Positions 9,401 through 43,724 of a stretch of DNA of 64,000 bases are shown here, in pieces. Source of the stretch: Candidatus Sumerlaeota bacterium. Its GTDB lineage: Bacteria; Bacillota; SLNR01. The stretch is from assembly GCA_040766585.1 (NCBI GenBank), contig JAXGQE010000010.1:63117-127116 (forward strand), written 5' to 3'. A program made the position numbers and the translations under genes. Below the pieces are notes generated by a model. That model worked only from the letters and a program-made list of their open reading frames with translations, did not search any database and had not been told where the DNA came from. How positions within the stretch are numbered: the stretch's first letter is position 1; each line of letters begins with the position of its first letter.

Positions 9401-9988
9401 ATGATACCTGAAATTGTGGACATGATTCAAAAATCAGCAGCCATTGCCGTCGGTCTGGCGCTGCTGAATGTGGTGACCGCCTTTTTGATGAGGATGTATC
9501 TGACCTGGGCAGTGATTCGGAAAAAGCAGGTGGACCTGCATGTCAGACCCACCCAGAAGCAGTGGGTGAACTATGTGGCTCCTCTTCAGGATGTGGAATT
9601 CAAAGGACTTGTGGTCATGATCGTGGTGATTGTCCTGATCGCATACTTTATTAAGCAAATTCCAGCCGCCTCCGGGCTGATTGTGATTCTGGTGGGGCTG
9701 TCCTTTTTCACGTTTACACTGGGGCTGGCCCGTCCCTCGTATTATCTGACGCCCGAGGGTCTGGTGGTGTTAAACTGGTACCCGCCCTATATGAATCGGA
9801 ATATGGGGTTTTTCCGCTGGAGCCTTTTTGAGAAGTATGCCGCCACCGATGACGGTGTTGTGGTAGGCAGCCCGAAGCGAATCATTCCCATCATCTGCGA
9901 ACAGAAGGATCTGGATGCAGTACGCCGCTATGTGCGGCGGATGATGAACCGCCTGAGGGCAGAGGCCGGTCTGGAAACACTGGATTAA
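9401..9988 (+). CDS. hypothetical integral membrane protein
   Basis: 195 aa with several hydrophobic helices; RBS AGGAGGGGA upstream; followed by a bidirectional terminator. Confidence 0.6.
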   Translation: MIPEIVDMIQKSAAIAVGLALLNVVTAFLMRMYLTWAVIRKKQVDLHVRPTQKQWVNYVAPLQDVEFKGLVVMIVVIVLIAYFIKQIPAASGLIVILVGLSFFTFTLGLARPSYYLTPEGLVVLNWYPPYMNRNMGFFRWSLFEKYAATDDGVVVGSPKRIIPIICEQKDLDAVRRYVRRMMNRLRAEAGLETLD

Positions 9989-10018
9989 AAAAAGCCCGGT
10001 GAAGACCGGGCTTTTGGC
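9985..10018. terminator. bidirectional intrinsic terminator between convergent genes
   Basis: Perfect 10-bp stem AAAGCCCGGT/ACCGGGCTTT with GAAG loop (9991-10014), A-run on one side and T-run on the other. Confidence 0.7.
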
Positions 10019-10024
10019 AGTGCC

Positions 10025-11104
10025 TTATTGAGGGGGCTGCAGGCGAATGGCTTTGGTGGGGCATTTTTCCTGACAGCAAAAGCAGACAATACACTTTTCT
10101 GAATCCACTCGGGGGTAGCCGTCCATGGTGATGGCACCGGCCGGGCATTCTGCCGCACAGGTACCGCACATGGTGCAGAGATCCTCATCCACCTGGGGAC
10201 GCTGGGCACGGATCCGGGCCCAGAAATCTCCAGAACCGCCGCGTTCCGGTTTCAGATAGCCCTCCGGATGCTTGTAGTCTTGGATGATCGTCAAAGTACC
10301 GTCAACATGGATTTTATCCAGATCTTTTTCACCGAATCCCCGGGCATGGCCCAGTTCGGTGGATCGGATCATGCCGGGGGCGAAGTTCATCATGGCTCCA
10401 ATGACAGCATCCACGGCCACCATGTCGGTACCGGCCAGGATCAGACCCAGGGAGCGTATATCTTCGGAGAAGGGACCGTTCCCTTCCATGGCCAGGATTC
10501 CATCCACAATGGCCAGGTCCGGCGGTCGGATGGAGAATACATCCAGCAAAGCAGCCGGAAAGTCGTACGGGTTTCCGGCGGTAAAATGCAGATTGGCTTT
10601 CTGGGCGCCGGGCAAATACCCGTAGCAGTTTTTGATAGCACCGGACAGGCCGGTAAGGCCATGGGTTTTGAATTTGGGTAAATTGATCACATAATCGGCT
10701 TCCAGAATGGCTTCGGATACTGCCGGATGCGGCAGATACTGAGAATCCAATGTCAGTTCTCGTACCCGGGTACCGAAGTTTTCGTAGTACTCTCCGGCGG
10801 CTTCCAGCAGTCCGGTTTCGGCAAACGATCCCCTATTGGCTCCGTAACTGGATGCTCCGGGGTTATCACCCACGATGATGGAGGCCGGGTGACGGGCTTC
10901 AACCGCTCGCAGTACTGCGGATAAAACGGCCGGGTGGGTTGTAACACCCTCATGGGGTTTGGATCCTCGCAGGACATTGGGCTTTAAGACCACTTTTTTA
11001 CCAGCTAATGGTGGATCGAAACGAGCAAAGATTTCATCCACCACTGCCTGGCAGTTATCGTATTGTGCTGAACGGATCATGACAGTGGGTTTCAACGGTT
11101 TCAT
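10025..11104 (-). CDS. DUF362 domain protein fused to a C-terminal 2x[4Fe-4S] ferredoxin domain
   Basis: ORF 10025-11152; C-terminus CTMCGTCAAECP ... CIVCFCCQEKCP (two CxxCxxCxxxCP motifs). Start ambiguous (ATG 11152, 11104 or 11080; none has an ideal SD). Confidence 0.75.
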   Translation of the reverse strand: MKPLKPTVMIRSAQYDNCQAVVDEIFARFDPPLAGKKVVLKPNVLRGSKPHEGVTTHPAVLSAVLRAVEARHPASIIVGDNPGASSYGANRGSFAETGLLEAAGEYYENFGTRVRELTLDSQYLPHPAVSEAILEADYVINLPKFKTHGLTGLSGAIKNCYGYLPGAQKANLHFTAGNPYDFPAALLDVFSIRPPDLAIVDGILAMEGNGPFSEDIRSLGLILAGTDMVAVDAVIGAMMNFAPGMIRSTELGHARGFGEKDLDKIHVDGTLTIIQDYKHPEGYLKPERGGSGDFWARIRAQRPQVDEDLCTMCGTCAAECPAGAITMDGYPRVDSEKCIVCFCCQEKCPTKAIRLQPPQ

Positions 11105-17110: not shown

Positions 17111-18367
17111 TTAAGCCAGCCAGGGTTTGCTTCTCAGTTCTTCCGGTGGATGCGGGTTGGGCACAAAATCGCTGGTGTCCACATCATGTTTCATAACATG
17201 AAGGGTATAGGCGATGGTGGCCATCACTCCCAGAGGAAGCACTTCCTCGTCCACTTCGAAATGGGGATTGTGGTGAGCAGCACCGGTTCCTTTTTCTTCA
17301 TTGGCTATGCCGACGAAGGCAAAGACGCCGGGAGCATACTTCAGGTAAAAAGCCATGGATTCCGAAGCCATCCAGGTGGGTTCGTTCATCAGGTATTCTC
17401 CGCCCATGGCCGTACGGATGGCATCTTCTGCAGCCTTGGACAGCCCAGGGTGATTCATGACAATCATACCGCTGGGATTCAGTCCGGATTTTACATCATA
17501 GGTGCAGTGATGCAGGGCGCAGCAGTGATCCAGGATCTCTTTGGTCCGGGCAGCAGACTTCTTGGATTCTTCCAGATCGGTAACTCGGAAGGACCCGGCA
17601 AATGTCAGTGTTTCCGGAATGATATTGGGAGCGCTGCCGGCGTTGATTTTCCCTACGCTCATGGTGGTGGCTTTAAAGGGATCCAGTGTGGTCATCCGCA
17701 TGGCGTTCATGTTCTGATAGACATCCACGAAGCAGTCTAGGGGGCTATGGGAAAGATCCGGCCGGGATCCGTGGCCGCCCTGGCCTTTGATTTCCACTTC
17801 GAAGAATACACCGGCGGCCATACGGGGACCGGGGTCGACAGAAATCTTTCCGGAAGGCATTCCGGCGTACAGATGGATTCCCCAAATGGCATCCGGCTTT
17901 TCTTCCAGGACCATATTGGAGATCGCCAACGCGCCGTAGCCCATTTCTTCGCCCTGTTCAAACATCAGGACCACTTCGCCATCCAGTTCATCCGCATGTT
18001 CCTTCATGATTTTGGCAGCGGTCAAGAGCATGGATGTGTGGCCATCGTGACCGCAGGCGTGCATGGCGGCATCGGTTTTGGAGCAATATTTTCGCGGGCC
18101 TTTCAGGTTGTCTTCGGCTTCTTTCATGGGCAGTGCGTCGATGTCTGCCCGCAGTCCGATTTTTTTGCCCTTTTTGCCTTTGTTGATCCAGCCGATAATT
18201 CCGCCATCGCGGTCTTCCGCTTCGATGCCCATTTTTTTAAGTTCTTCCATCACCACTTTTTTGGTGTTGGTTTCCTTGCCGCCCACTTCCGGATTTTCAT
18301 GGAAGTAGACATACATCTTCTGCAGGTATTCGGCTTCCTGCTGTACTGCTTTTTTCAGATCCAGCAT
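17111..18367 (-). CDS. M20-family amidohydrolase (N-acyl-amino-acid amidohydrolase / hippurate hydrolase type)
   Basis: 418 aa; metal-binding region MHACGHDGHTSMLL typical of M20D; RBS AAAGGAGGT 7 nt upstream. Confidence 0.88.
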   Translation of the reverse strand: MLDLKKAVQQEAEYLQKMYVYFHENPEVGGKETNTKKVVMEELKKMGIEAEDRDGGIIGWINKGKKGKKIGLRADIDALPMKEAEDNLKGPRKYCSKTDAAMHACGHDGHTSMLLTAAKIMKEHADELDGEVVLMFEQGEEMGYGALAISNMVLEEKPDAIWGIHLYAGMPSGKISVDPGPRMAAGVFFEVEIKGQGGHGSRPDLSHSPLDCFVDVYQNMNAMRMTTLDPFKATTMSVGKINAGSAPNIIPETLTFAGSFRVTDLEESKKSAARTKEILDHCCALHHCTYDVKSGLNPSGMIVMNHPGLSKAAEDAIRTAMGGEYLMNEPTWMASESMAFYLKYAPGVFAFVGIANEEKGTGAAHHNPHFEVDEEVLPLGVMATIAYTLHVMKHDVDTSDFVPNPHPPEELRSKPWLA

Positions 18368-18442: not shown

Positions 18443-19855
18443 TTAATAACCGATCCAGTTGATGCTGAAGAGGACATAGATCCAGACAAAGGACAGCAGA
18501 ATCATCCCCACCACAATGGGGAGAGCCCACTTGAACCATTTGTCGAAGGGAACCCCTGCCGCTGCACAAGATCCTACTGTCCAGCCCAGAGCCGGGGAAA
18601 TGATGTTGGTGAAACCGTCGCCGAACTGGAACGCCTGGACCGCCAGCTGAGGATTCATGCCCAATACTTCGGTAATGGGTTTGATGATGGGCATAAGAAT
18701 GGCTGCTTTGCTGGAGGCCGATGGGATGATGGGGTTGATGATGGCGATGATCCCTGTCAGACCAATGGCGGCAATGCCCTGGTCCAGACCCCGCAGCGGG
18801 AGTGTCAGAACGTACACGATGGTATGAGTAATGTTCCCTTCGTTCATGACCAGGGAAACAACACGGGCCATCCCGATGATGAAGCCGACAAATGCCATTC
18901 CGCCCAGTCCTTTGGCGTAGGCATCCCCGATTTCATCGGCCGACAATCCGGCGATGACGCCGCAGAGGACGGCATTGACGGTGGTAACCGCGGTCAGGAA
19001 GTTATATACGCTGCCGCCTTGTCGGGCATAGGTCAGAGAATACCAGACAATCAGCCCGTACTGGCCGAAGAAAAGCAGCAGGATAACGATGTCCCGCCAT
19101 GAAATGTGGGCTTCATGGATGGCACTTTCGCCGCTGTCATCAATGACCTTCAGCCAATCCGTATTGCCCATGGCCGATTTGCTGGGATCTTTCAGAATCC
19201 GGTTGGCGTACCAGAGAACATAGAGGATGGCGATGATTCCGAAGAAGAACATGATGACCATACGCATGCCGAACCCGGAATAGATGGGTACTTCCATCAT
19301 GGACTGGGGAATCAGCAGTTTGTTGGGCCCGGTGCCGAACCCCACCAATGTGGCAAAAGTGGTAACGGCAATGGCCATAATGGGATCCAGCCTCAGTTTT
19401 CTGGCAAAGACCAGACCCACCGGGACCAGTGCAATCAGGTAGTCGCCGCCTCCGAAAGCGCTGAGGATGATCAGCATGCTCATCAGAAGAACGATCAATG
19501 TGTTGGGTCCTTTATCCTTGAGCTTGAAGGTGGCCCAGCTCAAGAAGTTGTCGATGGCCTTGGTGGCCAAAATGACCCCGATGGAGGCTCCTCCGACCAG
19601 TACCACCATGATGATGAATGCAGACTGGACCAAGCCGTCCTGGAACAGGTAAATGGCCCGGAACGGGCTGACCGGTGTCTGTTCATCCCGATAAATGAAG
19701 TTGGATCCATCCACCACTCCATTTTCGTCCACTGCGAAATTTCCTGCGGGGATCACATAGGTCAGCGCGCTCATGATGAGGATCAAACCGATCAGGATCC
19801 ACATCAGATGAGGCATTTTAAAGCCTTTCTTTTTTTCCTTCTTTTCGTCGGCCAT
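18443..19855 (-). CDS. YfcC/DcuC-family membrane transporter
   Basis: ORF 18443-19999, start at ATG 19855 (MADEKKEKKKGF...) behind AGGAGGAGG; many TM helices; 75 nt upstream of the M20 gene on the same strand. Confidence 0.8.
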   Translation of the reverse strand: MADEKKEKKKGFKMPHLMWILIGLILIMSALTYVIPAGNFAVDENGVVDGSNFIYRDEQTPVSPFRAIYLFQDGLVQSAFIIMVVLVGGASIGVILATKAIDNFLSWATFKLKDKGPNTLIVLLMSMLIILSAFGGGDYLIALVPVGLVFARKLRLDPIMAIAVTTFATLVGFGTGPNKLLIPQSMMEVPIYSGFGMRMVIMFFFGIIAILYVLWYANRILKDPSKSAMGNTDWLKVIDDSGESAIHEAHISWRDIVILLLFFGQYGLIVWYSLTYARQGGSVYNFLTAVTTVNAVLCGVIAGLSADEIGDAYAKGLGGMAFVGFIIGMARVVSLVMNEGNITHTIVYVLTLPLRGLDQGIAAIGLTGIIAIINPIIPSASSKAAILMPIIKPITEVLGMNPQLAVQAFQFGDGFTNIISPALGWTVGSCAAAGVPFDKWFKWALPIVVGMILLSFVWIYVLFSINWIGY

Positions 19856-20162
19856 ACTGAGAGACCTCCTCCTTGTATAATGATTGCTGAGTGTCCAGAC
19901 AGCATACAGTGCGCATGCTGTACCGATCCAGCCTGTCTGTTGGCTGCGGACCGTTTGACTGTGGCTGCAAGTCGTGCATCCCCTGATTCCCTTTGTCAAT
20001 ATACGAACGAAAAGACCTTTGTGGGATTAAAGGATTACAGCGGATATTCACGAATCTAACATAAACACGGCAAAGGTCTGAACAGACAGATATTGATACT
20101 TTCATTATATCCAAAGTGTTGTGAAAAAGTGCATATTCATGCAATATGGCAATGCCAACCTC

Positions 20163-20200: not shown

Positions 20201-21697
20201 ATGGTCTTTGCACAGAAATTAGATCTTTTAATGACCATTACCCGGACTACCAACCGGGAGCTGGGAGAATACCTGGTCATCGACCCTTCCCAGGTCAGCC
20301 GAGTCCGCAACGGACGCAGAAGACCCGGCGGCTGTTTTCTGGAAGGATTGAAACTCTGCTTATTCTTTGCGGAGCGCCTGAAGGATGACTATCAGAAAAA
20401 GGCCGTTCAGAATGCGCTGGGGCTTCCGTATGTCCTGCCTGATGACCTGGAAGAGGCGGCTTCCATTCTAGCGGGAGTGATGCGCCTGCGGGATTTTTCT
20501 GAGCCAGTGATCCCTGAGCCCATCCCTGAACACCCTCATGCCACCGTTGGAACGAGCCGTTTTGGCGTCGAAATTCCGGTCCAGGTGTATACCGGTACCG
20601 AAGGGAACAATGCGGCCAAAGTGCATTTCCTGGAGGAAGTTCTCAAAGAAAGTATCCCCCGGACCATTTGCCTGTTCAACAACGATGATATGGTCTGGAT
20701 GAAGGACGACACTCCTTTTGCCCATACGATTAATCGCTTAGCCAGAGAAATGTACGCCCGGGGGCACCGGCATATCGCCATATTTACTCCGGAACGCAAT
20801 TTTTCTCAGCTCAGCTCCATGGTGGATGAATGGATGCCGCAGATTCTCAGCCAGTCTTTGAAAGTATTCTATTATCCCGGAAAGGTAGACGGTATTTTCC
20901 GACGCCATATCAGCATCATGAGCGGCGGTCTGGCTTTGACCACTTCTGCGGTGGGGGACATGAGCGAAGACAAAATGACCATGATTACCCGGGACAAGCA
21001 GATAATCCGTTCTCTGCAAAAAGAGTTTGACCAGCTGCTGTATCTGTCCAAGCCGCTGTTTAATGTGTACCAGTCCAGCAATGAAAAGCAGATGCTGCAG
21101 GATATTACCAATATATCCAAAGATGAAGCTCCCACATTCCGTTATGCCGACCCGCTTCCGGGGAACACCATGCCGGAGTCGGTTTTTAATTCGGCCTATG
21201 AACGGATGGAATACCGCTTTAAAGAAAGGGTAGCCCGCCATTATCACGAAATCTACCGCTACAACGAATGGAATCTCAACCGCGTTCCCACCATGGAAAT
21301 GATCCACCTGCCGGATCCGGCCGATGTAAAAACCGGGCGCATCCCGGTGGAGCAATCCCTCTATTTCCCCATGGAGACCATCTACTATACGCCGCAGGAG
21401 TATGCCGACCATTTGCGTCATATCCTTTTCCTGCTGGAAAAACACCCCTTTTACCACCTGGCTTTGACAGAACGTGAAGGCCCCGAGAACCATTTGCTGC
21501 TGATCAAAAAAGGCACCCATGTGCTGGTGTCCAACAAGAATTACCCGCCGGTTATACTGACTAGCCGGGAACCTCTGATCGTGGATATATTTTGGCATCA
21601 TTATGTGGAAAAATCCGGACTGGACAAAATCACCACCGTACAGAAACGCCGGGTGATGAATATTCTGGAACAGTATCTGGCCGATCTGACACGATAA
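20201..21697 (+). CDS. hypothetical protein with N-terminal XRE-like helix-turn-helix; putative transcriptional regulator
   Basis: 498 aa; N-terminal TNRELGEYLVIDPSQVSRVRNGRR resembles an HTH; divergent from the yfcC-M20 operon; large C-terminal domain not recognised. Confidence 0.6.
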   Translation: MVFAQKLDLLMTITRTTNRELGEYLVIDPSQVSRVRNGRRRPGGCFLEGLKLCLFFAERLKDDYQKKAVQNALGLPYVLPDDLEEAASILAGVMRLRDFSEPVIPEPIPEHPHATVGTSRFGVEIPVQVYTGTEGNNAAKVHFLEEVLKESIPRTICLFNNDDMVWMKDDTPFAHTINRLAREMYARGHRHIAIFTPERNFSQLSSMVDEWMPQILSQSLKVFYYPGKVDGIFRRHISIMSGGLALTTSAVGDMSEDKMTMITRDKQIIRSLQKEFDQLLYLSKPLFNVYQSSNEKQMLQDITNISKDEAPTFRYADPLPGNTMPESVFNSAYERMEYRFKERVARHYHEIYRYNEWNLNRVPTMEMIHLPDPADVKTGRIPVEQSLYFPMETIYYTPQEYADHLRHILFLLEKHPFYHLALTEREGPENHLLLIKKGTHVLVSNKNYPPVILTSREPLIVDIFWHHYVEKSGLDKITTVQKRRVMNILEQYLADLTR

Positions 21698-21728
21698 GGG
21701 GATGGGAGTTTCACTGTAAGCTCGCTTG

Positions 21729-21757
21729 TTGACACGGCAGGGAGTTCATGGTATACT
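21729..21757 (+). promoter_or_regulatory. sigma-A-type promoter of copA-copZ
   Basis: TTGACA (21729-21734), 17-nt spacer, TATACT (21752-21757). Confidence 0.7.
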
Positions 21758-21761
21758 TAAT

Positions 21762-21778
21762 ATACCCCCATAGGGTAT
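21762..21778. promoter_or_regulatory. CsoR-type operator (GC-rich pseudo-palindrome ATACCCCCATAGGGTAT) over the copA transcription start
   Basis: Arms ATACCC/GGGTAT seen directly; closely resembles the Bacillus subtilis copZA CsoR box as I recall it; sits between the -10 and the copA RBS. Confidence 0.65.
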
Positions 21779-21795
21779 AAGTGAGGAGGGTAACC

Positions 21796-24204
21796 ATGAC
21801 AAAGCAAAATCAGTCATCCAATCATAAAGCAACCATCGGCATTACCGGAATGACTTGTGCCGCCTGTTCCGCCCGTGTGGAACGGGGATTGAAAGACACT
21901 CCCGGAGTAACGGATGCAGCCGTCAATCTGGCAACAGAGAAAGCCGTGGTGTCTTACGATCCTGAGGCCGTTTCACTGTCTGATTTGGTGCAGCGGGTGG
22001 AAGACATCGGGTACGGAGTCGTCCGGGATCGGATTTCTCTGGCAGTGGGCGGTATGACTTGTGCGGCCTGTTCCGCCCGAATTGGCACCCAGCTGGAGAA
22101 GGTTCCCGGTGTCCTGTCATCCCATGTGAATCTGGCTACAGAAAAAGCCGTAGTGGAATATCTTCCCGATATGGCCTCTGTATCCGATTTTCGGCGTGTC
22201 ATCCGCGATCTGGGATACACCATCATTGAAAGCGGTCCAGGGCGCGACGCTTCCGATGCGGAACGGGAAGCCCGTGAAGCGGAGATTCGCAAATTGAAAA
22301 ACCGATTCATATTTTCAGCGGTCCTGACACTGCCGCTGGTCAGCATGATGCTCCATGACCTGGGCATTCACATGCCGGCCTGGCTTATGGATATGCGTCT
22401 TCATTTTGTCCTGGCTACCATGGTGCAGATTGTAGCCGGTTCCACCTTTTACCGGGGAGCCTACCACAGTCTGAGAAGCGGTGCAGCCAATATGGATGTC
22501 CTGGTATCCATTGGAACAACGGCAGCCTACCTGTACAGCGTAGCGTCTACCTTTTTCATCGACGGCTTCATCTATTACGAAGCGGCGGCTGTAATCCTTA
22601 CTCTGGTGCTTTTGGGTAAATTGCTGGAGGCCAATGCCAAAGGTCGTACCTCAGAAGCCATCAAGAAGCTGATGGGTCTCCAGCCCAAAACAGCCCATGT
22701 GATAAAAAATGGAGAAGAAGTGGTGGTCCCCATTGAAGAACTGGAAGTGGGGGATCGGATTGTAGTTCGGCCGGGTGAGAAGATCCCGGTGGATGGGCAT
22801 ATGCTGGAAGGATTCAGTTCAGTGGATGAATCCATGCTCACCGGAGAAAGCATCCCGGTGGATAAGCACCCTGGAGATGAAGTCGTGGGTGCAACCATCA
22901 ATCTGCAGGGAATGATCCAGATGGAAGCCACCCGGGTGGGTCGAGATACGGCGTTGGCCCAGATTATCCGGATGGTGGAAGAAGCCCAGGGATCCAAAGC
23001 TCCGATTCAGCGACTGGCCGACCGGGTGGCTGGAGTCTTTGTACCCGTGGTCTTACTGATTGCATTGGGAACTTTTGCTGGATGGATGCTGGTATCGGGC
23101 AGTTTCACAGATGCCCTGATCCATGCCACGGCGGTCCTGGTCATCGCCTGTCCCTGCAGCCTGGGGTTGGCCACCCCCACAGCCATCATGGTGGGAACCG
23201 GACGGGGAGCTGAATCCGGTATACTGATCAAGGGCGGAGAATATCTGGAAAAAGCCCACAGTGTGAATGTGGTGGTCCTGGATAAAACCGGTACATTAAC
23301 CCGCGGTCAGCCGGAACTGACGGGAGTGTGGCCACTTTCGGGAGATGAAAATGAACTGCTGCGGATCGCGGCATCCGCCGAACAGGGATCCGAACATCCC
23401 CTGGGACAGGCCATTGTGGCCGGGGCCCGGGCGCGGGAACTGAAACTGGATACCCCGCAACAGTTTGCCGCTGTTGCCGGGCATGGAATTGAAGCCCAGA
23501 TCAACGGCCGGGCAGTCCTTTTGGGCAACCGGAAGATGATGACAGAGAAAAACATTGAATATCTGCCTGGAGAAGGGCTTTTGACAGAAGCAGAAAACCG
23601 CGGGGAGACGGCCATGTTGGCGGCCATCGACGGAAAACTGGCCGGGGTAATCTCGGTTGCGGATACGGTCAAGGATACCTCCCGGCAGGCGGTGGCCGAA
23701 CTGAAAAAGATGGGCATGGATGTGGTTATGATCACCGGAGACAACCGCCGTACTGCTCAAGCCATCGGGGATCTGGTGGGAATCAGCCATATACTGGCAG
23801 AAGTCCTGCCGCAGGATAAAGCCAAGGAAGTGGAGAAACTGAAAGGAGAAGGGAAAGTGGTGGCTATGGTGGGGGACGGAATCAACGATGCTCCCGCCCT
23901 GGCGACAGCAGACCTGGGCCTGGCGATTGGCACAGGAACCGATGTAGCCATTGAAACCGCCGGCATTACCCTGATGAGCGGAGACCTGATGGGAGTAGTG
24001 TCCGCCATCCGACTGAGCCGACGGACCATGCGCACCATCCGCCAGAATCTTTTTTGGGCCTTCTTCTACAATATCCTGGGAATACCATTGGCGGCGGCCG
24101 GGTACCTGAATCCCATGATTGCCGGAGCAGCCATGGCATTTAGTTCAGTATCCGTGGTAACCAACTCACTGCTGCTGAAGCGATACAATCCCCGCAGCAA
24201 CTGA
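21796..24204 (+). CDS. copA: copper-translocating P1B-type ATPase
   Basis: ORF 21781-24204, start at ATG 21796 behind GAGGAGGG; two N-terminal HMA domains ([10 protein letters not shown] twice), CPC, DKTGTLT and GDGINDAP motifs. Confidence 0.93.
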
Positions 24205-24231
24205 TTTCAATATAAGGGAGGTGAATATCCA

Positions 24232-24459
24232 ATGGCAGAAGATAAAAAGTCCATGAAATTTGATTTGAATGTAGAAGGAATGACTTGCGGGCACTGTGTT
24301 TCCACCATAGAAAAGGCGGTGGGAAATGTGTCCGGTGTGGAATCAGTTAGCGTGGATTTGGCAAAAAAACTAGTGTCTGTTGTTTGTGAGAATGATCCTC
24401 TGACTCATGAAGCCATAAAGCGGGCTGTCACCAGCGCCGGCTATCAGCTAGCCGATTGA
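24232..24459 (+). CDS. copZ: copper chaperone (HMA domain)
   Basis: 75 aa with GMTCGHC metal-binding motif; RBS GGGAGGTG 9 nt upstream; directly after copA. Confidence 0.88.
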   Translation: MAEDKKSMKFDLNVEGMTCGHCVSTIEKAVGNVSGVESVSVDLAKKLVSVVCENDPLTHEAIKRAVTSAGYQLAD

Positions 24460-24510
24460 CGAGGCAGGAAATGTGTAAACGGCATTGGGGAATTCATCGT
24501 CGATGTCAGT

Positions 24511-24546
24511 CAGGGCAGCCGGGATCCGGATTTCGGCTGCCCTGGT
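24511..24546 (+). terminator. stem-loop after copZ (possible terminator or attenuator)
   Basis: Perfect 11-bp stem CAGGGCAGCCG/CGGCTGCCCTG with 12-nt loop, followed by GTTCTTTCT (weak T-tract). Confidence 0.4.
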
Positions 24547-24580
24547 TCTTTCTGGCAACCTATGGAAAAGGAGGGATCCT

Positions 24581-25363
24581 ATGCTGAGCGATCGGGAACG
24601 AATGCGCTATTCTCGCCAGATTCTTCTGGATGAGGTGGGTGAAAGCGGGCAGTTGAAATTGAAAGAAGCCAGTGTACTGATCGTGGGCTGCGGAGGCTTG
24701 GGATCGCCTGTCGCCATGTATCTGGCGGCAGCCGGAGTCGGCACCATCGCGGTTTTGGATAAAGATGTGGTGGAACTGTCCAATCTTCAGCGCCAGATCA
24801 TGCACAGCATGGACCGTTTGGGTGTACCCAAAGCGATGTCAGCCCGGATGACCTTGGAATCCATGAATCCTGAAATACAAATCCGGGAGTATATCCGGGA
24901 ACTGGTGCCTGAAAATGTTCAGGAATTCATTCGAGACTTTGATGTTGTCATTAACGGTGTCGACAATTTTGAGACCCGTTTTCTTCTGAATGATGCCTGT
25001 TATCTGGAAAAGAAGCCGCTGATCGAGGCTGGGGTACTGCGGTACGATGGATTGGTGATGACCATCCTTCCGGACCAGGGACCCTGTTATCGCTGTCTTT
25101 TTCCGCATATACCTGAGGAAGGAACCGTATCCTCCACTCAAACACTGGGTCTGTTGGCCACCATTCCCGGAATTGCCGGGACAATCCAGGCAACTGAAGC
25201 ACTGAAGGTAATCCTGGGAATCGGCAAACCCTTGACCGGGAGGGTTTTGGCATTCAACGCACTGGAGGGGCATTATGATGTGATTGACTGGCCTCGGGAT
25301 CCCCACTGCCCTCTGTGCGGAGAGCATCCCACCATCCACACTCCGGGAGAAGATTTTGAGTAA
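24581..25363 (+). CDS. ThiF/MoeB/HesA-family E1-like adenylyltransferase
   Basis: ORF 24485-25363, start at ATG 24581 behind AAAGGAGGG; nucleotide-binding GCGGLGSP; C-terminal CxxC...CxxC (CYRC...CPLC). Confidence 0.85.
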   Translation: MLSDRERMRYSRQILLDEVGESGQLKLKEASVLIVGCGGLGSPVAMYLAAAGVGTIAVLDKDVVELSNLQRQIMHSMDRLGVPKAMSARMTLESMNPEIQIREYIRELVPENVQEFIRDFDVVINGVDNFETRFLLNDACYLEKKPLIEAGVLRYDGLVMTILPDQGPCYRCLFPHIPEEGTVSSTQTLGLLATIPGIAGTIQATEALKVILGIGKPLTGRVLAFNALEGHYDVIDWPRDPHCPLCGEHPTIHTPGEDFE

Positions 25364-25374
25364 GAAAGAGTAAT

Positions 25375-25399
25375 CAAAAAACCTCCTAGGAGGTTTTTT
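25375..25399. terminator. bidirectional intrinsic terminator
   Basis: AAAAAACCTCC-TA-GGAGGTTTTTT: perfect palindromic hairpin flanked by A- and T-runs. Confidence 0.75.
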
Positions 25400-25456
25400 G
25401 ATTTCTGGCTAAAAATCTCAGGGAATCCGGAGGAGTTTCCTTTTGTGTGTCGGTGG

Positions 25457-25792
25457 CTATTTCCCCAGCCACTGGATGAAGAAGAGAAATACAGCCAGTA
25501 TGAACAGCACAGACAGAATCAGAACCGCCAGTCCCAAATTCATACCCAGGGTGGCTTCCCGGAATCCGGGAGAAGACGGTCCCTCCATCTGGCGCCGAAC
25601 CGATCGGGCTGAAAGATAGGCCAAAATGGCCAGGGGGATCACCAGTGGAAGCAGCAGTCCGTTGATCCCGATTGAATCCACGGTGATGCCCAAAAAGATA
25701 GAAAGAACGAAGGCTGCAGCTGATGCCTGTCCCAGCCGAAGGGCTGTCCAGGCGCTGCGGGGAATGGGATCGGATGAGTCTGGATGGGCCAT
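25457..25792 (-). CDS. hypothetical small membrane protein
   Basis: 111 aa, hydrophobic; strong RBS AGAGGAGGGA 6 nt upstream; last gene of a minus-strand operon with the AI-2E transporter. Confidence 0.55.
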   Translation of the reverse strand: MAHPDSSDPIPRSAWTALRLGQASAAAFVLSIFLGITVDSIGINGLLLPLVIPLAILAYLSARSVRRQMEGPSSPGFREATLGMNLGLAVLILSVLFILAVFLFFIQWLGK

Positions 25793-31326: not shown

Positions 31327-34089
31327 ATGGAAAGTGAAAAATGCTGGTCGTTAGAGGAATCGGAAGCAGTATGTCATCGTCTGCAGACCAATCTGGAATC
31401 AGGATTAACTTCGGAAGCCGTGCAGCGGAAGATCAAAGAATACGGAATGAATGAGCTGGAGGAAAGGGAGAAAATATCACCCTGGGCCATTTTTGCTGCC
31501 CAGTTCAAGGATTTTATGGTACTGGTCCTTCTGGGAGCGGCGCTGTTGTCCGGCGTACTGGGGGAACTGGTGGACACTTTTGCGATTGCTGCCATCATTC
31601 TGATCAATGCAGTTTTGGGATTCGTTCAGGAATATCGGGCGGAGCAGTCCATGGCGGCTTTGAGGGAAATGTCAGCCCCCACAGCGCAGGTGGTGAGAGA
31701 AGGCCGGATCCAGGTGATTCCTGCCCGCCAGCTGGTACCCGGGGATCTGGTGGTCCTGGAATCCGGCGATAAAGTACCGGCAGATGGACGACTGGTGGAG
31801 GTCAGTAATTTGCGCATTGATGAGTCCATGCTGACGGGGGAATCCAAACCATCCAAAAAAATCGCTGTTCCTCTGGAACAGGAGGCGGCTGGCCCTGCCG
31901 ATAAGAAGAACATGTCGTTTATGGGAACCATCGTCACGGATGGGCGGGGGCACATGATTGTTACAGAAACCGGCATGAAAACAGAAATGGGCCGTATAGC
32001 CCATATGATCCAGTCCGTACAAGAGGAACAAACACCCCTGCAGAAGAAACTGGATCATCTGGGGAAGCTTCTGGTGGTGGGGTGTCTGCTGATTTGTGTA
32101 GTTGTAGCAGTTACAGGGATTCTTCGCGGTGAAGATCCACTGATGATGCTAATGGTGGGAATCAGTCTTGCCGTGGCGGCGATTCCGGAAGGACTGCCGG
32201 CCATTGTAACTGTATCTTTGGCCATTGGTGTTCAGAAAATGATAAAGCGCCACGCTTTGATCCGCAGCCTGCCGGCCGTTGAGACACTGGGATGCACCAA
32301 TTTCATCTGTTCGGATAAAACCGGTACACTGACAGAAAACAAGATGACCCTTAGAAAGATATATACCAACGGCCAGATCTTTGATATTACCGGAGTCGGT
32401 TACAGTCCAGTGGGTGAGTTCCGCCATCAGGAGCGACCGGTTACTGAAGAGGAATTTGAACAGCTGCGTCGGCTGCTGCAAATCGGAACGCTGGCATCCA
32501 ATGCCAACCTGATCGAAGCAGGAACGCATCTGGATGAAGCCACCACCGATACCGGAAATGGAGACTGGACCATCAGCGGAGACCCCACCGAAGGGGCCAT
32601 TGTTGTGGCAGCTGCCAAAGCCGGTGTCTGGAAGGAGCAGTTGAAAACCGAATGCACCCGGGTACTGGAACTTCCCTTTGATTCAGACCGCAAGCGAATG
32701 TCCACGGTCTGCCACACTCCCGCGGACAATGGCATTGTCAGCGTCAAAGGGGCTGCAGAATCGCTTTTGGATTTGTGCGACGGAATTTGGGAAGCGGGAT
32801 ATATTAAGAAAATGACACCGGAAGATCGGGTCCGGGTGACTCGCATGAACGAGGAAATGGCATCCATGGCCCTGCGAGTCCTGGGGATAGCTTACAAAGA
32901 TGTGGGCAGCCCTGGGGAGGTGACTCCGGAAACGGCCGAGTCCGGCCTGATATTTGCCGGGCTGGTGGGCATGATTGATCCGCCCCGGGAAGAAGCCCGG
33001 GCAGCCATTGCCCGTTGTGACCGGGCAGGCATCAAGACAGTCATGATCACCGGAGATCATCGCCTGACGGCTGAGGCTATCGGCAAAGAGCTGGAAATAC
33101 TCAAAGACGGAGACTCCATTTTAACTGGGGAAGACTTGAACCGAATGTCCGTGGAAGAGCTGTCTCACAATGCAGAGAAAGTGTCCGTTTACGCTCGGGT
33201 GGCACCGCATCACAAACTGAATATTGTCAAAGCACTGGAAGAAAGAGGCCATATCGTGGCCATGACCGGAGACGGGGTCAACGATGCTCCGGCCGTAAAA
33301 GAAGCGGGTATCGGGGTGGCCATGGGAATCACCGGGACCGATGTGACCAAGGAAGCTTCATCGATGATTTTGATGGATGACAACTTTGCTACCATCGTAG
33401 CTGCGGTGGAAGAAGGAAGAGCCATCTATGACAATATTCGAAAATTTATCCGGTATCTGCTGTCCTGCAATGTGGGTGAAGTATTAACGATGTTTATTGC
33501 ATCCCTCATGGGGATGCCACTGCCGCTGCTGCCCATCCAGATTCTTTGGGTGAATCTGGCTACTGACGGTCTGCCGGCCATTGCTCTGGGGCTGGATCCT
33601 TCAGATTCCGGCATTATGGAACGGGCTCCTCGAGGATCCAACGAAACGGTCTTTTCCAGAGGATTGAGTCGGATCATCATTTTGAGGGGTGTGGTCATCA
33701 GTGTCATCACTTTGCTGGCTTTTGCCCTATCCCTGGAGCAGTTTCCCGGGAATCTGACGCTGGCCCGGACAACGGCATTTTCCGTTCTGGTTATATCTCA
33801 GCTGATGCATGTGTTTGAGTGCCGGTCAGAAACAAAGAACATCTGGGAAATCGGATTTTTTACGAATCTGTACCTGGTGGGGGCCGTATGCATATCCCTG
33901 TTGATGCTGCTGCTGGTTATTTATGTGCCGGCTATGCAGCCGGTTTTCAGAACCATACCGCTGGATACAGGACATTGGCTGTTTGCTTTGGGGCTGGGAG
34001 CGGCCGGATCATTGTTGATGAGGGTTCTGCTGTGGGCCGCCGGATACATTTTAGGACCGGTATCTCTGCCCGATGTAAAGAAGGTGTAA
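31327..34089 (+). CDS. P2-type (SERCA/PMCA-like) cation-transporting ATPase; probably a Mn2+/Ca2+ efflux pump
   Basis: 920 aa; DKTGTLT phosphorylation motif, [10 protein letters not shown], 10-TM architecture; RBS GGGAGG 6 nt upstream; riboswitch-like leader. Confidence 0.92.
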
Positions 34090-34092
34090 GGA

Positions 34093-34121
34093 TTGCCAGG
34101 GCATTTAATATTGGTTATAAT
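34093..34121 (+). promoter_or_regulatory. sigma-A-type promoter of csoR
   Basis: TTGCCA (34093-34098), 17-nt spacer, TATAAT (34116-34121); about 150-nt leader to csoR. Confidence 0.6.
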
Positions 34122-34275
34122 AATGAAAAGGATACTGTAAATGGTCCATATTTCCCCTTCCGGATGATGGGGAACAGAAATGGGTATTCTTCAGCCGGAG
34201 TCTGACAAGAGCAGTCCGAAAAAATGGAAGTCAGCCTTCATTCCGTGGCAATGATGCATGAAGGGGGCGTCGAAC

Positions 34276-34563
34276 ATGAAAAAGCCGGATCAGCCGCAGA
34301 ACAGTTTCGATAAAAAGAAACTGCAGGCACGATTGCGCAGGATTGAAGGACAAATACGCGGTCTGCAGAAGATGATTGACGAGGATCGGTATTGTGTGGA
34401 TGTACTGGTGCAGATTGCCGCTGCCCGGGCAGCATTAAACCGGGTTGGCATGGCTGTGCTGGAAAAACACACTCGAGGGTGTGTGGTAAATGCCATTGCT
34501 CACGATCGGGGTGACGAAGCGGTGGATGAGCTGATGGATGTATTGATGCGGTTTATTCAATAA
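34276..34563 (+). CDS. csoR: CsoR/RcnR-family metal-sensing transcriptional repressor (copper-sensing CsoR type)
   Basis: ORF 34258-34563, start at ATG 34276; RLRRIEGQIRGLQKMIDEDRYCVDVLVQIAAARAAL with the family's Cys/His positions. Confidence 0.85.
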   Translation: MKKPDQPQNSFDKKKLQARLRRIEGQIRGLQKMIDEDRYCVDVLVQIAAARAALNRVGMAVLEKHTRGCVVNAIAHDRGDEAVDELMDVLMRFIQ

Positions 34564-34564
34564 A

Positions 34565-34597
34565 AACAAAGTCCCGGTGATATTTCACCGGGACTTT
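34565..34597. terminator. bidirectional intrinsic terminator
   Basis: Perfect 9-bp stem GTCCCGGTG/CACCGGGAC with ATATTT loop, flanked by A-rich and T-rich tracts. Confidence 0.75.
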
Positions 34598-34639
34598 GAT
34601 ATAAGCTGACTATCTCGATAGATGCAGAGCGGCTCTTTC

Positions 34640-34942
34640 TTAGAGGATGCCGCCTCCCTTGACATAATCGATTCCTGTTTCACCAATCATGCTTTCCGAC
34701 TCACGGATCAGCTGAGACATGTTCAAATCGGCATAGGTGCCGTATTGGGCCAAGAGTGCTTCCATTTCGTCCAGCACGTTCTCCTCGGCTGTTGCATCGA
34801 CGCGAATGCAGTATTTCCCGATCCGTCTGTAGAGGCCTACGGTGTTGCAGAATGATCCGTACTTTTCATCCAGGGCAAGAACGGCTTCTTTGAGAGTCTC
34901 GAATTCTTTCATCTGATAGACCATTATACGCTGTTTGGCCAT
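34640..34942 (-). CDS. hypothetical protein
   Basis: ORF 34640-34957, start at ATG 34942 (MAKQRIMVYQ...) behind GGGGGGAA; 100 aa; no family recognised. Confidence 0.45.
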   Translation of the reverse strand: MAKQRIMVYQMKEFETLKEAVLALDEKYGSFCNTVGLYRRIGKYCIRVDATAEENVLDEMEALLAQYGTYADLNMSQLIRESESMIGETGIDYVKGGGIL

Positions 34943-35033
34943 GTACATTCCCCCCAAAAAGATTTTCTGGGCATATTATATCATATTGGAGCGGCATCTG
35001 TCATAAAAAGACTGTTTGAGAGGGGTAGTTTGT

Positions 35034-43420: not shown

Positions 43421-43724
43421 TAACGACATTATAGATTGCATCCGAACCAGTTGGATGTGGTGGACGGATACAGAAGGAGGTGGAAGATGGGTAAGGGAAG
43501 AGATCCGATCGGGAACACGGCATGGAGTCTTCTCGGTTGTCAAAGCGCCAGAACTTGACTTCGGTCAAGTTGACGAGGGAGAGGTTAATCGAATCTTCGG
43601 CGGGTGCCTCTCGGTGCAGTCACCATCGTAGAAATGCTACAAATCCCGGAAGTGATTTCGGTGACAAAAGGCATTGCAGTGACAATTGTAGTTTGATATA
43701 TGAATATTGGGGGAGGAATCGTTT

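Follow-up and report, generated by a model that had tools for sequence, protein, structure and literature searches.

A predicted CsoR-type operator at copA-copZ and a csoR gene encoded about 10 kb away in an uncultured Bacillota lineage

In the 64-kb stretch of DNA analysed here, which we refer to as the window, a strong promoter and a palindromic box precede the copper-efflux genes copA and copZ, and a gene for a CsoR-family repressor is encoded farther downstream on the same strand, with 9.8 kb between the end of copZ and the start of csoR and 12.5 kb between the copA promoter and csoR. In B. subtilis csoR reportedly adjoins copZA, whereas in the window it is 9.8 kb off. The locus raises the question of whether the box is a genuine CsoR operator, and whether it is served by a repressor made at such a distance. 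An earlier note on this DNA had put the separation at about 10 kb and had proposed that copper derepression acts here in trans from a separate locus. Our analysis favours, at a probability of roughly 0.8, a standard CsoR-controlled copper-efflux switch, in which the product of the gene at 34276-34563 would act on the box in front of copA-copZ.

The copA promoter, its box and the copA-copZ operon

The promoter TTGACA-17-TATACT, reported previously at 21729-21757, can be read directly from the sequence (Table 1). In a promoter scan it gives 11 of 12 matches and the top score within 21400-25600, and it is the only strong plus-strand promoter located 5' of copA. The pseudo-palindrome at 21762-21778 also lies as described: it starts 4 nt past the -10 hexamer and overlaps the predicted +1. 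Its perfect palindromic arms reach one base farther on each side than had been noted (TATACCC/GGGTATA, 21761-21779), and the region from the copA promoter through the box reads gcTTGACAcggcagggagttcaTGgTATACTtaatATACCCCCATAGGGTATaagtgaGGAGGgtaaccATG. The ATG of copA, formerly placed at 21797, is at 21796.

The published type-2 CsoR consensus, ATATACCCCTNAGGGGTATAT, was derived for streptomycetes, and its positions 3-8 and 14-19 are the most conserved (PMC3902906). In the corresponding 21-nt frame (21760-21780, ATATACCCCCATAGGGTATAA), the copA box matches this streptomycete consensus at 16 of the 20 specified positions, including all 12 of the most conserved ones, and the X9 spacing is exact. 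The TAC-X9-GTA dyad, which is needed for binding and is common to the sites of S. lividans, S. aureus, L. monocytogenes and B. subtilis (PMC3902906), is represented by TAC at 21763-21765, nine bases, and GTA at 21775-21777. The tracts of the box are asymmetric (C5 versus G3), and this asymmetry could make CsoR binding weaker.

The scan for further ATACCC-N5-GGGTAT boxes that the earlier note had suggested was run on the 64 kb and returned, at up to one mismatch, the copA box and no second site, against 0.07 sites expected; in a shuffle control, 6 of 100 shuffled sequences contained at least one such site. The looser pattern TACCC-N3-8-GGGTA likewise occurs once in the 64 kb, against 0.12 expected. 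Boxes with two mismatches (at 10443, 10944, 21387, 25879 and 48234) were ruled out as members of a regulon, as all five are located within ORFs.

Table 1. Features of the copA-copZ and csoR loci (coordinates are those of the window)
Feature	Coordinates	Strand	Basis and remarks
-35 hexamer of the copA promoter, TTGACA	21729..21734	+	sequence and promoter scan; TTGAC invariant in four lineages
TG-extended -10 of the copA promoter, TGgTATACT (TG 21749-21750, TATACT 21752-21757)	21749..21757	+	17-nt spacer; TATA.T invariant
Predicted type-2 CsoR operator, ATACCC-CCATA-GGGTAT (ATACCCCCATAGGGTAT)	21762..21778		predicted from sequence; unique in the window
RBS of copA, GGAGG	21785..21789	+	sequence reading; 6 nt 5' of the copA ATG
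copA, P1B-1 Cu(I)-exporting ATPase, 802 aa	21796..24204	+	domain and family models
copZ, copper chaperone, 75 aa	24232..24459	+	one HMA domain, MTCGHC; TIGR00003 73.8 bits, cut-off 62
16-bp G+C-rich hairpin and U-rich tract	24510..24545	+	-33.7 kcal/mol, z -4.3
csoR promoter, TTGCCA-17-TATAAT	34093..34121	+	11/12 matches in promoter scan; without CsoR box
csoR leader, about 150 nt, where relatives carry GDT1/UPF0016	34122..34275	+	RBS/ATG remnant at ~34128-34145 alone recognisable
csoR, CsoR-family repressor, 95 aa, predicted to sense Cu(I)	34276..34563	+	PF02583, E 1.9e-32
14-bp hairpin between csoR and the convergent ORF	34567..34598		scan scored the minus strand

Analysis of the domain content of the operon bears out the earlier description of a copA with two HMA domains followed by copZ. 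CopA comprises two N-terminal HMA domains (each with GMTCAAC), followed by E1-E2 ATPase and HAD domains, with the CPC motif within ACPCSLG, and scores 634 bits against the family model of copper-translocating P-type ATPases (TIGR01511, cut-off 397); the copper chaperone model TIGR00003 identifies CopZ. The hairpin located 3' of copZ is a probable terminator of copA-copZ, possibly a leaky one. Beyond it lies a gene for a ThiF/MoeB-like E1 protein (24581-25363, with its ATG at 24581), which is found 3' of copZ in all relatives; two of these, L089 and L092, have an extra 88-aa ORF between copZ and the ThiF gene, for which no Pfam match was detected at E values up to 1.

Directly 5' of copA, in the window and in every relative, we found a gene for a 498-aa protein (20201-21697, plus strand), and no terminator was detected in the 31 nt that separate its stop codon from the copA -35 hexamer. 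The one family match of the protein in Pfam and NCBIfam is a weak N-terminal hit to HTH_3 (PF01381, E 0.1). In all lineages its gene is divergent from a pair of genes, located on the minus strand of the window, for a DcuC/AbgT transporter (18443-19999) and for an M20 peptidase (17111-18367), and the protein is probably an uncharacterised regulator of this pair; owing to this divergent pairing, it is a less likely candidate for the regulator of copA. Elsewhere in the window, a glmS ribozyme (RF00234, 102.8 bits) is located at 43533-43687 on the plus strand, which fits an origin from Bacillota.

The csoR gene, its product and its neighbourhood

The earlier note had described a CsoR-family gene at 34276-34563, tail-to-tail with a hypothetical gene and following a P-type ATPase, and all three elements of this description stand. 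The product matches PF02583 (Trns_repr_metal) with 111.9 bits (cut-off 22.8) over positions 1-77 of the 78 in the profile, and a search of the window in six frames revealed no other PF02583-like ORF. Its best match in the PDB is CsoR of Geobacillus thermodenitrificans (4M1P, E 1.3e-25), followed by S. lividans CsoR, InrS, and M. tuberculosis CsoR. In the alignment to the M. tuberculosis protein (2HH7), Cys40, His65 and Cys69 fall on Cys36, His61 and Cys65, and the second-shell residues Tyr39 and Glu85 on Tyr35 and Glu81. The x-C-H-C pattern defines the Cu(I) sensors of the CsoR family, CstR proteins are devoid of the Y-position His, and the second-shell pair of Tyr and Glu couples Cu(I) binding to the release of DNA (PMC8643695). 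The N-terminus, MKKPDQPQNSFD, is free of His and Cys and hence of a "W" metal ligand. Two elements highlighted for DNA binding, an RLXR motif on helix alpha-1 and a conserved Gln on alpha-2 (PMC3902906), are represented here by RLRR at 19-22 and by Gln46. Among eight homologues, down to 54% identity, Tyr39, Cys40, His65, Cys69, Glu85, Arg19-Leu20 and Gln46 are invariant. Other identities were considered and found unlikely: the presence of His65 speaks against CstR (a persulfide sensor), and the scores against the models of RcnR, FrmR and RicR are 59.5, 55.4 and 84.3 bits, versus NCBIfam cut-offs of 138, 133 and 175, respectively.

The csoR gene is located 3' of a gene for a P-type ATPase of 920 aa (31327-34089, plus strand) and is convergent with a minus-strand ORF of 105 aa (34640-34957) that has no family match; the hairpin between csoR and this ORF is a probable terminator. 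The ATPase possesses the Cation_ATPase_N and Cation_ATPase_C domains and scores 524 bits against TIGR01517 (cut-off 507). It is a Ca2+-type P2 pump, not a P1B metal-efflux or copper pump, and its adjacency to csoR provides no copper linkage. The setting of csoR is a Ca2+-ATPase/GDT1 neighbourhood instead of a copper one, which counts against the reading as a copper switch.

The promoter of csoR, TTGCCA-17-TATAAT, is kept in five lineages. Motif searches of the csoR upstream region (34090-34275) found no CsoR box, as had been reported before, and a loose ATAC...CCCC...GGGG...GTAT symmetry at 34131-34188 was rejected as a CsoR site; csoR of the window is probably not autoregulated. In all relatives, this promoter precedes a gene of 101-105 aa from the GDT1/UPF0016 family (Mn2+/Ca2+ transporters), which is located between the Ca-ATPase gene and csoR (L082, 1906-2211; L085, 4726-5040; L090, 22056-22373; L093, 9658-9969) and is apparently co-transcribed with csoR. 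Searches of the window with tblastn and blastn recovered nothing of GDT1 beyond its RBS and ATG. The gene has been lost here, while the promoter and the RBS/ATG remnant have been kept, and csoR is now preceded by a leader of some 150 nt. In this leader (34122-34275) no unusual fold was found (z +1.2), nor any Rfam family at gathering scores.

Comparison with relatives and alternative explanations

A single search of genome contigs with CopA returned distant relatives only, at most 58% identical; the close relatives, all of them metagenome assemblies, were reached via a search for homologous proteins and then for the contigs that encode them. Exact look-ups of the window CsoR, as a protein of 95 or of 101 aa, and of P0001 matched no contig, and the exact look-up of copZ matched a 1.2-kb Logan contig only. 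The CopA proteins of the close relatives are identical to that of the window at 77% (L089, GCA_964503545.1), 76% (L092) and 72% of positions (L090 and L091). We aligned the regions upstream of copA from the window, L089, L090 and L092 (mean column identity 63%). The alignment contains the invariant blocks TTGAC, TATA.T, ATACCCC and GGGTATA and is diverged otherwise; the arms of the box are invariant in L089, L090 and L092, while its spacer differs in L090 (CCATGGG). As read from these sequences, the promoter hexamers and the arms of the box constitute a classic regulatory footprint.

In L090, as well as in L093/L094, which were reached by way of their CsoR (68% identical), the genes follow one another in the order HTH-like gene, copA, copZ, ThiF, AI-2E transporter, more genes, Ca-ATPase, GDT1 and csoR. 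This order is that of the window, GDT1 aside, and csoR starts about 10 kb past the end of copA. The shared order and spacing show that the separation of csoR and copA is old and stable in this clade, with the spacing of about 10 kb maintained over species-to-genus-level divergence. In GCA_964503545.1 copA and csoR are located on separate contigs. Among 80 distant copA loci, a csoR-like ORF is present in the flanks of 21, in 19 of which it is directly adjacent; linkage of csoR to copA is the common state and no rule. Among the distant loci with linked csoR, the same type of box occurs in the copA or csoR-copA promoter of L034, L042 and L079, the latter two having one box each in the operon promoter. 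In L034, from a Peptostreptococcaceae MAG, two tandem boxes 30 nt apart are found at the copA promoter (9914-9975), one between the -35 and -10 elements and the other downstream, and csoR is immediately 3' of copA. In L021, from a Bacillota MAG, a long GAAACAAGACA-like tandem-repeat array (9700-10000) lies immediately 5' of copA.

A box in the GDT1-csoR promoter is found only in L090 and L093 and is absent from the window, L082 and L085. This CsoR-type box, GATACCCGATTGGGGTATAAT, located at 22019-22033 in L090 and in identical form at ~9615-9635 in L093, occupies the spacer of the GDT1-csoR promoter and overlaps its -10; if functional, it implies autoregulation of csoR and copper control of the UPF0016 transporter in that lineage. 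The same site bears on an alternative in which the copA box is a real CsoR-type operator, but is served by a CsoR paralogue encoded outside the window, while the gene at 34276 controls, e.g., the former GDT1 module. Genomes with several CsoRs do exist (S. lividans has two; PMC3902906), csoR of the window resides in the conserved Ca-ATPase/GDT1 context, and in L090 and L093 the box is found in the GDT1-csoR promoter itself. However, the GDT1-csoR promoter of L090 carries a box of the type found at copA, and this favours a single protein acting at both sites. Furthermore, no second PF02583 ORF was detected in the 64 kb or, in L089-L092, within the 10 kb flanking copA, and the gene order from copA to csoR is conserved. 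We therefore regard a paralogue as an unlikely reader of the copA box.

It is less probable still that the product of the gene at 34276 has another specificity (CstR, the Ni/Co sensors RcnR/InrS, or the formaldehyde sensor FrmR) and that the copA box is read by another protein, such as the 498-aa HTH-like one. The CsoR family is indeed functionally diverse, its W-X-Y-Z motifs are acknowledged to be imperfect predictors of specificity (PMC8643695), and the synteny of the 498-aa gene with copA extends to all relatives. On the other hand, the Y-position His that is missing in CstR is present together with the Tyr/Glu second shell, the N-terminus offers neither a His nor a Cys as ligand, the RcnR and FrmR scores are below their cut-offs, the 498-aa gene is divergently paired with the transporter-peptidase operon, and the box fits the CsoR consensus.

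Equally remote is the explanation of the palindrome as a 5' stem-loop that acts on the RNA level, by stabilisation or attenuation of the copA mRNA, or as a product of chance: an inverted repeat of 6-7 bp with a 5-nt loop could fold, and conserved arms with a variable loop are also expected of an RNA hairpin (the arms being invariant, there is no covariation, and conservation alone cannot tell the two kinds of site apart), but with a start 6-8 nt past the -10 the transcript would begin within the left arm and lack the full stem, and the fold predicted from 21764 (-6.9 kcal/mol, z +0.7) leaves the palindrome unused; chance is opposed by the expectation of 0.07 sites and by the exact match to the consensus at its conserved positions.

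The proposed copper switch and known CsoR systems

The preferred reading is thus that of a copper-efflux switch controlled by the CsoR of the window. At low copper, a copper-free CsoR tetramer encoded at 34276-34563 would bind the box at 21762-21778; since the box starts 4 nt past the -10 and extends over the predicted start, the bound repressor would block initiation at the strong copA promoter, and it would also block read-through from the upstream gene. Binding of Cu(I) to Cys40, His65' and Cys69', coupled via Tyr39 and Glu85, would lower the affinity for DNA. The derepressed copA-copZ would then be transcribed, CopZ would pass Cu(I) on to CopA, and CopA would export it. Because the csoR promoter carries no box and is located 9.8 kb past copZ, csoR is probably expressed constitutively from its own sigma-A-type promoter, and CsoR probably acts by diffusion. 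We infer the binding of CsoR, the response to copper, the transcription start and the absence of autoregulation from the sequence comparisons described above.

Every diffusible repressor acts in trans. The trans-acting CsoR of the earlier note is supported by the match of the box to the consensus, by the footprint in the relatives and by the Cu(I)-sensor residues, while the oddity implied for such an arrangement was overstated, given the precedents in S. aureus and S. lividans. The split layout of csoR and copA is already documented in these two species, and the finding is real but ordinary; unlinked csoR genes and CsoR regulons of several operons being on record, it leaves the understanding of CsoR systems unchanged. 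For an uncultured lineage of Bacillota that is represented solely by metagenome assemblies, the analysis provides a checkable annotation of copper regulation that comprises operator, promoter and regulator as well as the probable lack of autoregulation.

We also put forward, only tentatively and with low confidence, that in this clade csoR was recruited into the Ca2+-ATPase/GDT1 module instead of the cop operon, and that the window represents a derived state in which GDT1 and the box were lost and csoR became constitutive. If this were true, the UPF0016 transporter of the L090/L093 lineage would be copper-induced together with csoR, which would amount to cross-talk between copper and manganese/calcium. 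A literature search for co-occurring terms matched only two papers, and we are aware of no published link between CsoR and GDT1/UPF0016.

Among the characterised systems, those of B. subtilis and Listeria monocytogenes resemble the predicted one in the repressor family, in the efflux pair and in the regulatory logic, in which the apo-repressor occupies a pseudo-palindromic, G/C-rich site at the promoter (PMC8424229, PMC10233261). In L. monocytogenes, csoR is adjacent to, or within, the operon (csoR-copA-copZ; PMC10233261), in contrast to the 9.8 kb found here. According to titles cited in PMC8424229, B. subtilis CsoR regulates ycnKJI besides copZA.

CsoR of S. lividans (SLI4375) controls the copZA operons SLI1317/1318 and SLI3079/3080 as well as its own gene (PMC3902906). 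This system shares with the window the TAC-X9-GTA operator and a repressor with an RLXR motif and the conserved Gln; its two copZA operons bear gene numbers different from that of csoR. It differs in that S. lividans csoR is autoregulated through a box of its own, whereas the csoR promoter of the window carries none, in that the G-tracts of the window box are shorter and asymmetric, and in the host, which belongs to Actinomycetota and not to an uncultured Bacillota lineage.

In S. aureus, csoR is likewise located away from copAZ (PMC10233261); apo-CsoR binds fragments of the copA and copX promoters in EMSA, and its release by Cu(I) has been shown at the copA promoter (PMC5947656). Unlike the S. 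aureus system, that of the window is predicted from sequence, its csoR is located only some 10 kb downstream on the same strand, in the neighbourhood of a Ca-ATPase gene, and the ATACCC/GGGTAT arms of its box are perfectly symmetric. The S. aureus sites at copA, ATACCtataGGGGGTAC, and at copX, ATACCctggGTGGGTAT, belong to the same operator type as the window box. In both systems copA is followed by copZ, and in both the gene for an x-C-H-C CsoR lies outside the copper operons that its product represses (copAZ, copXL and copB-mco in S. aureus) or, in the window, is predicted to repress.
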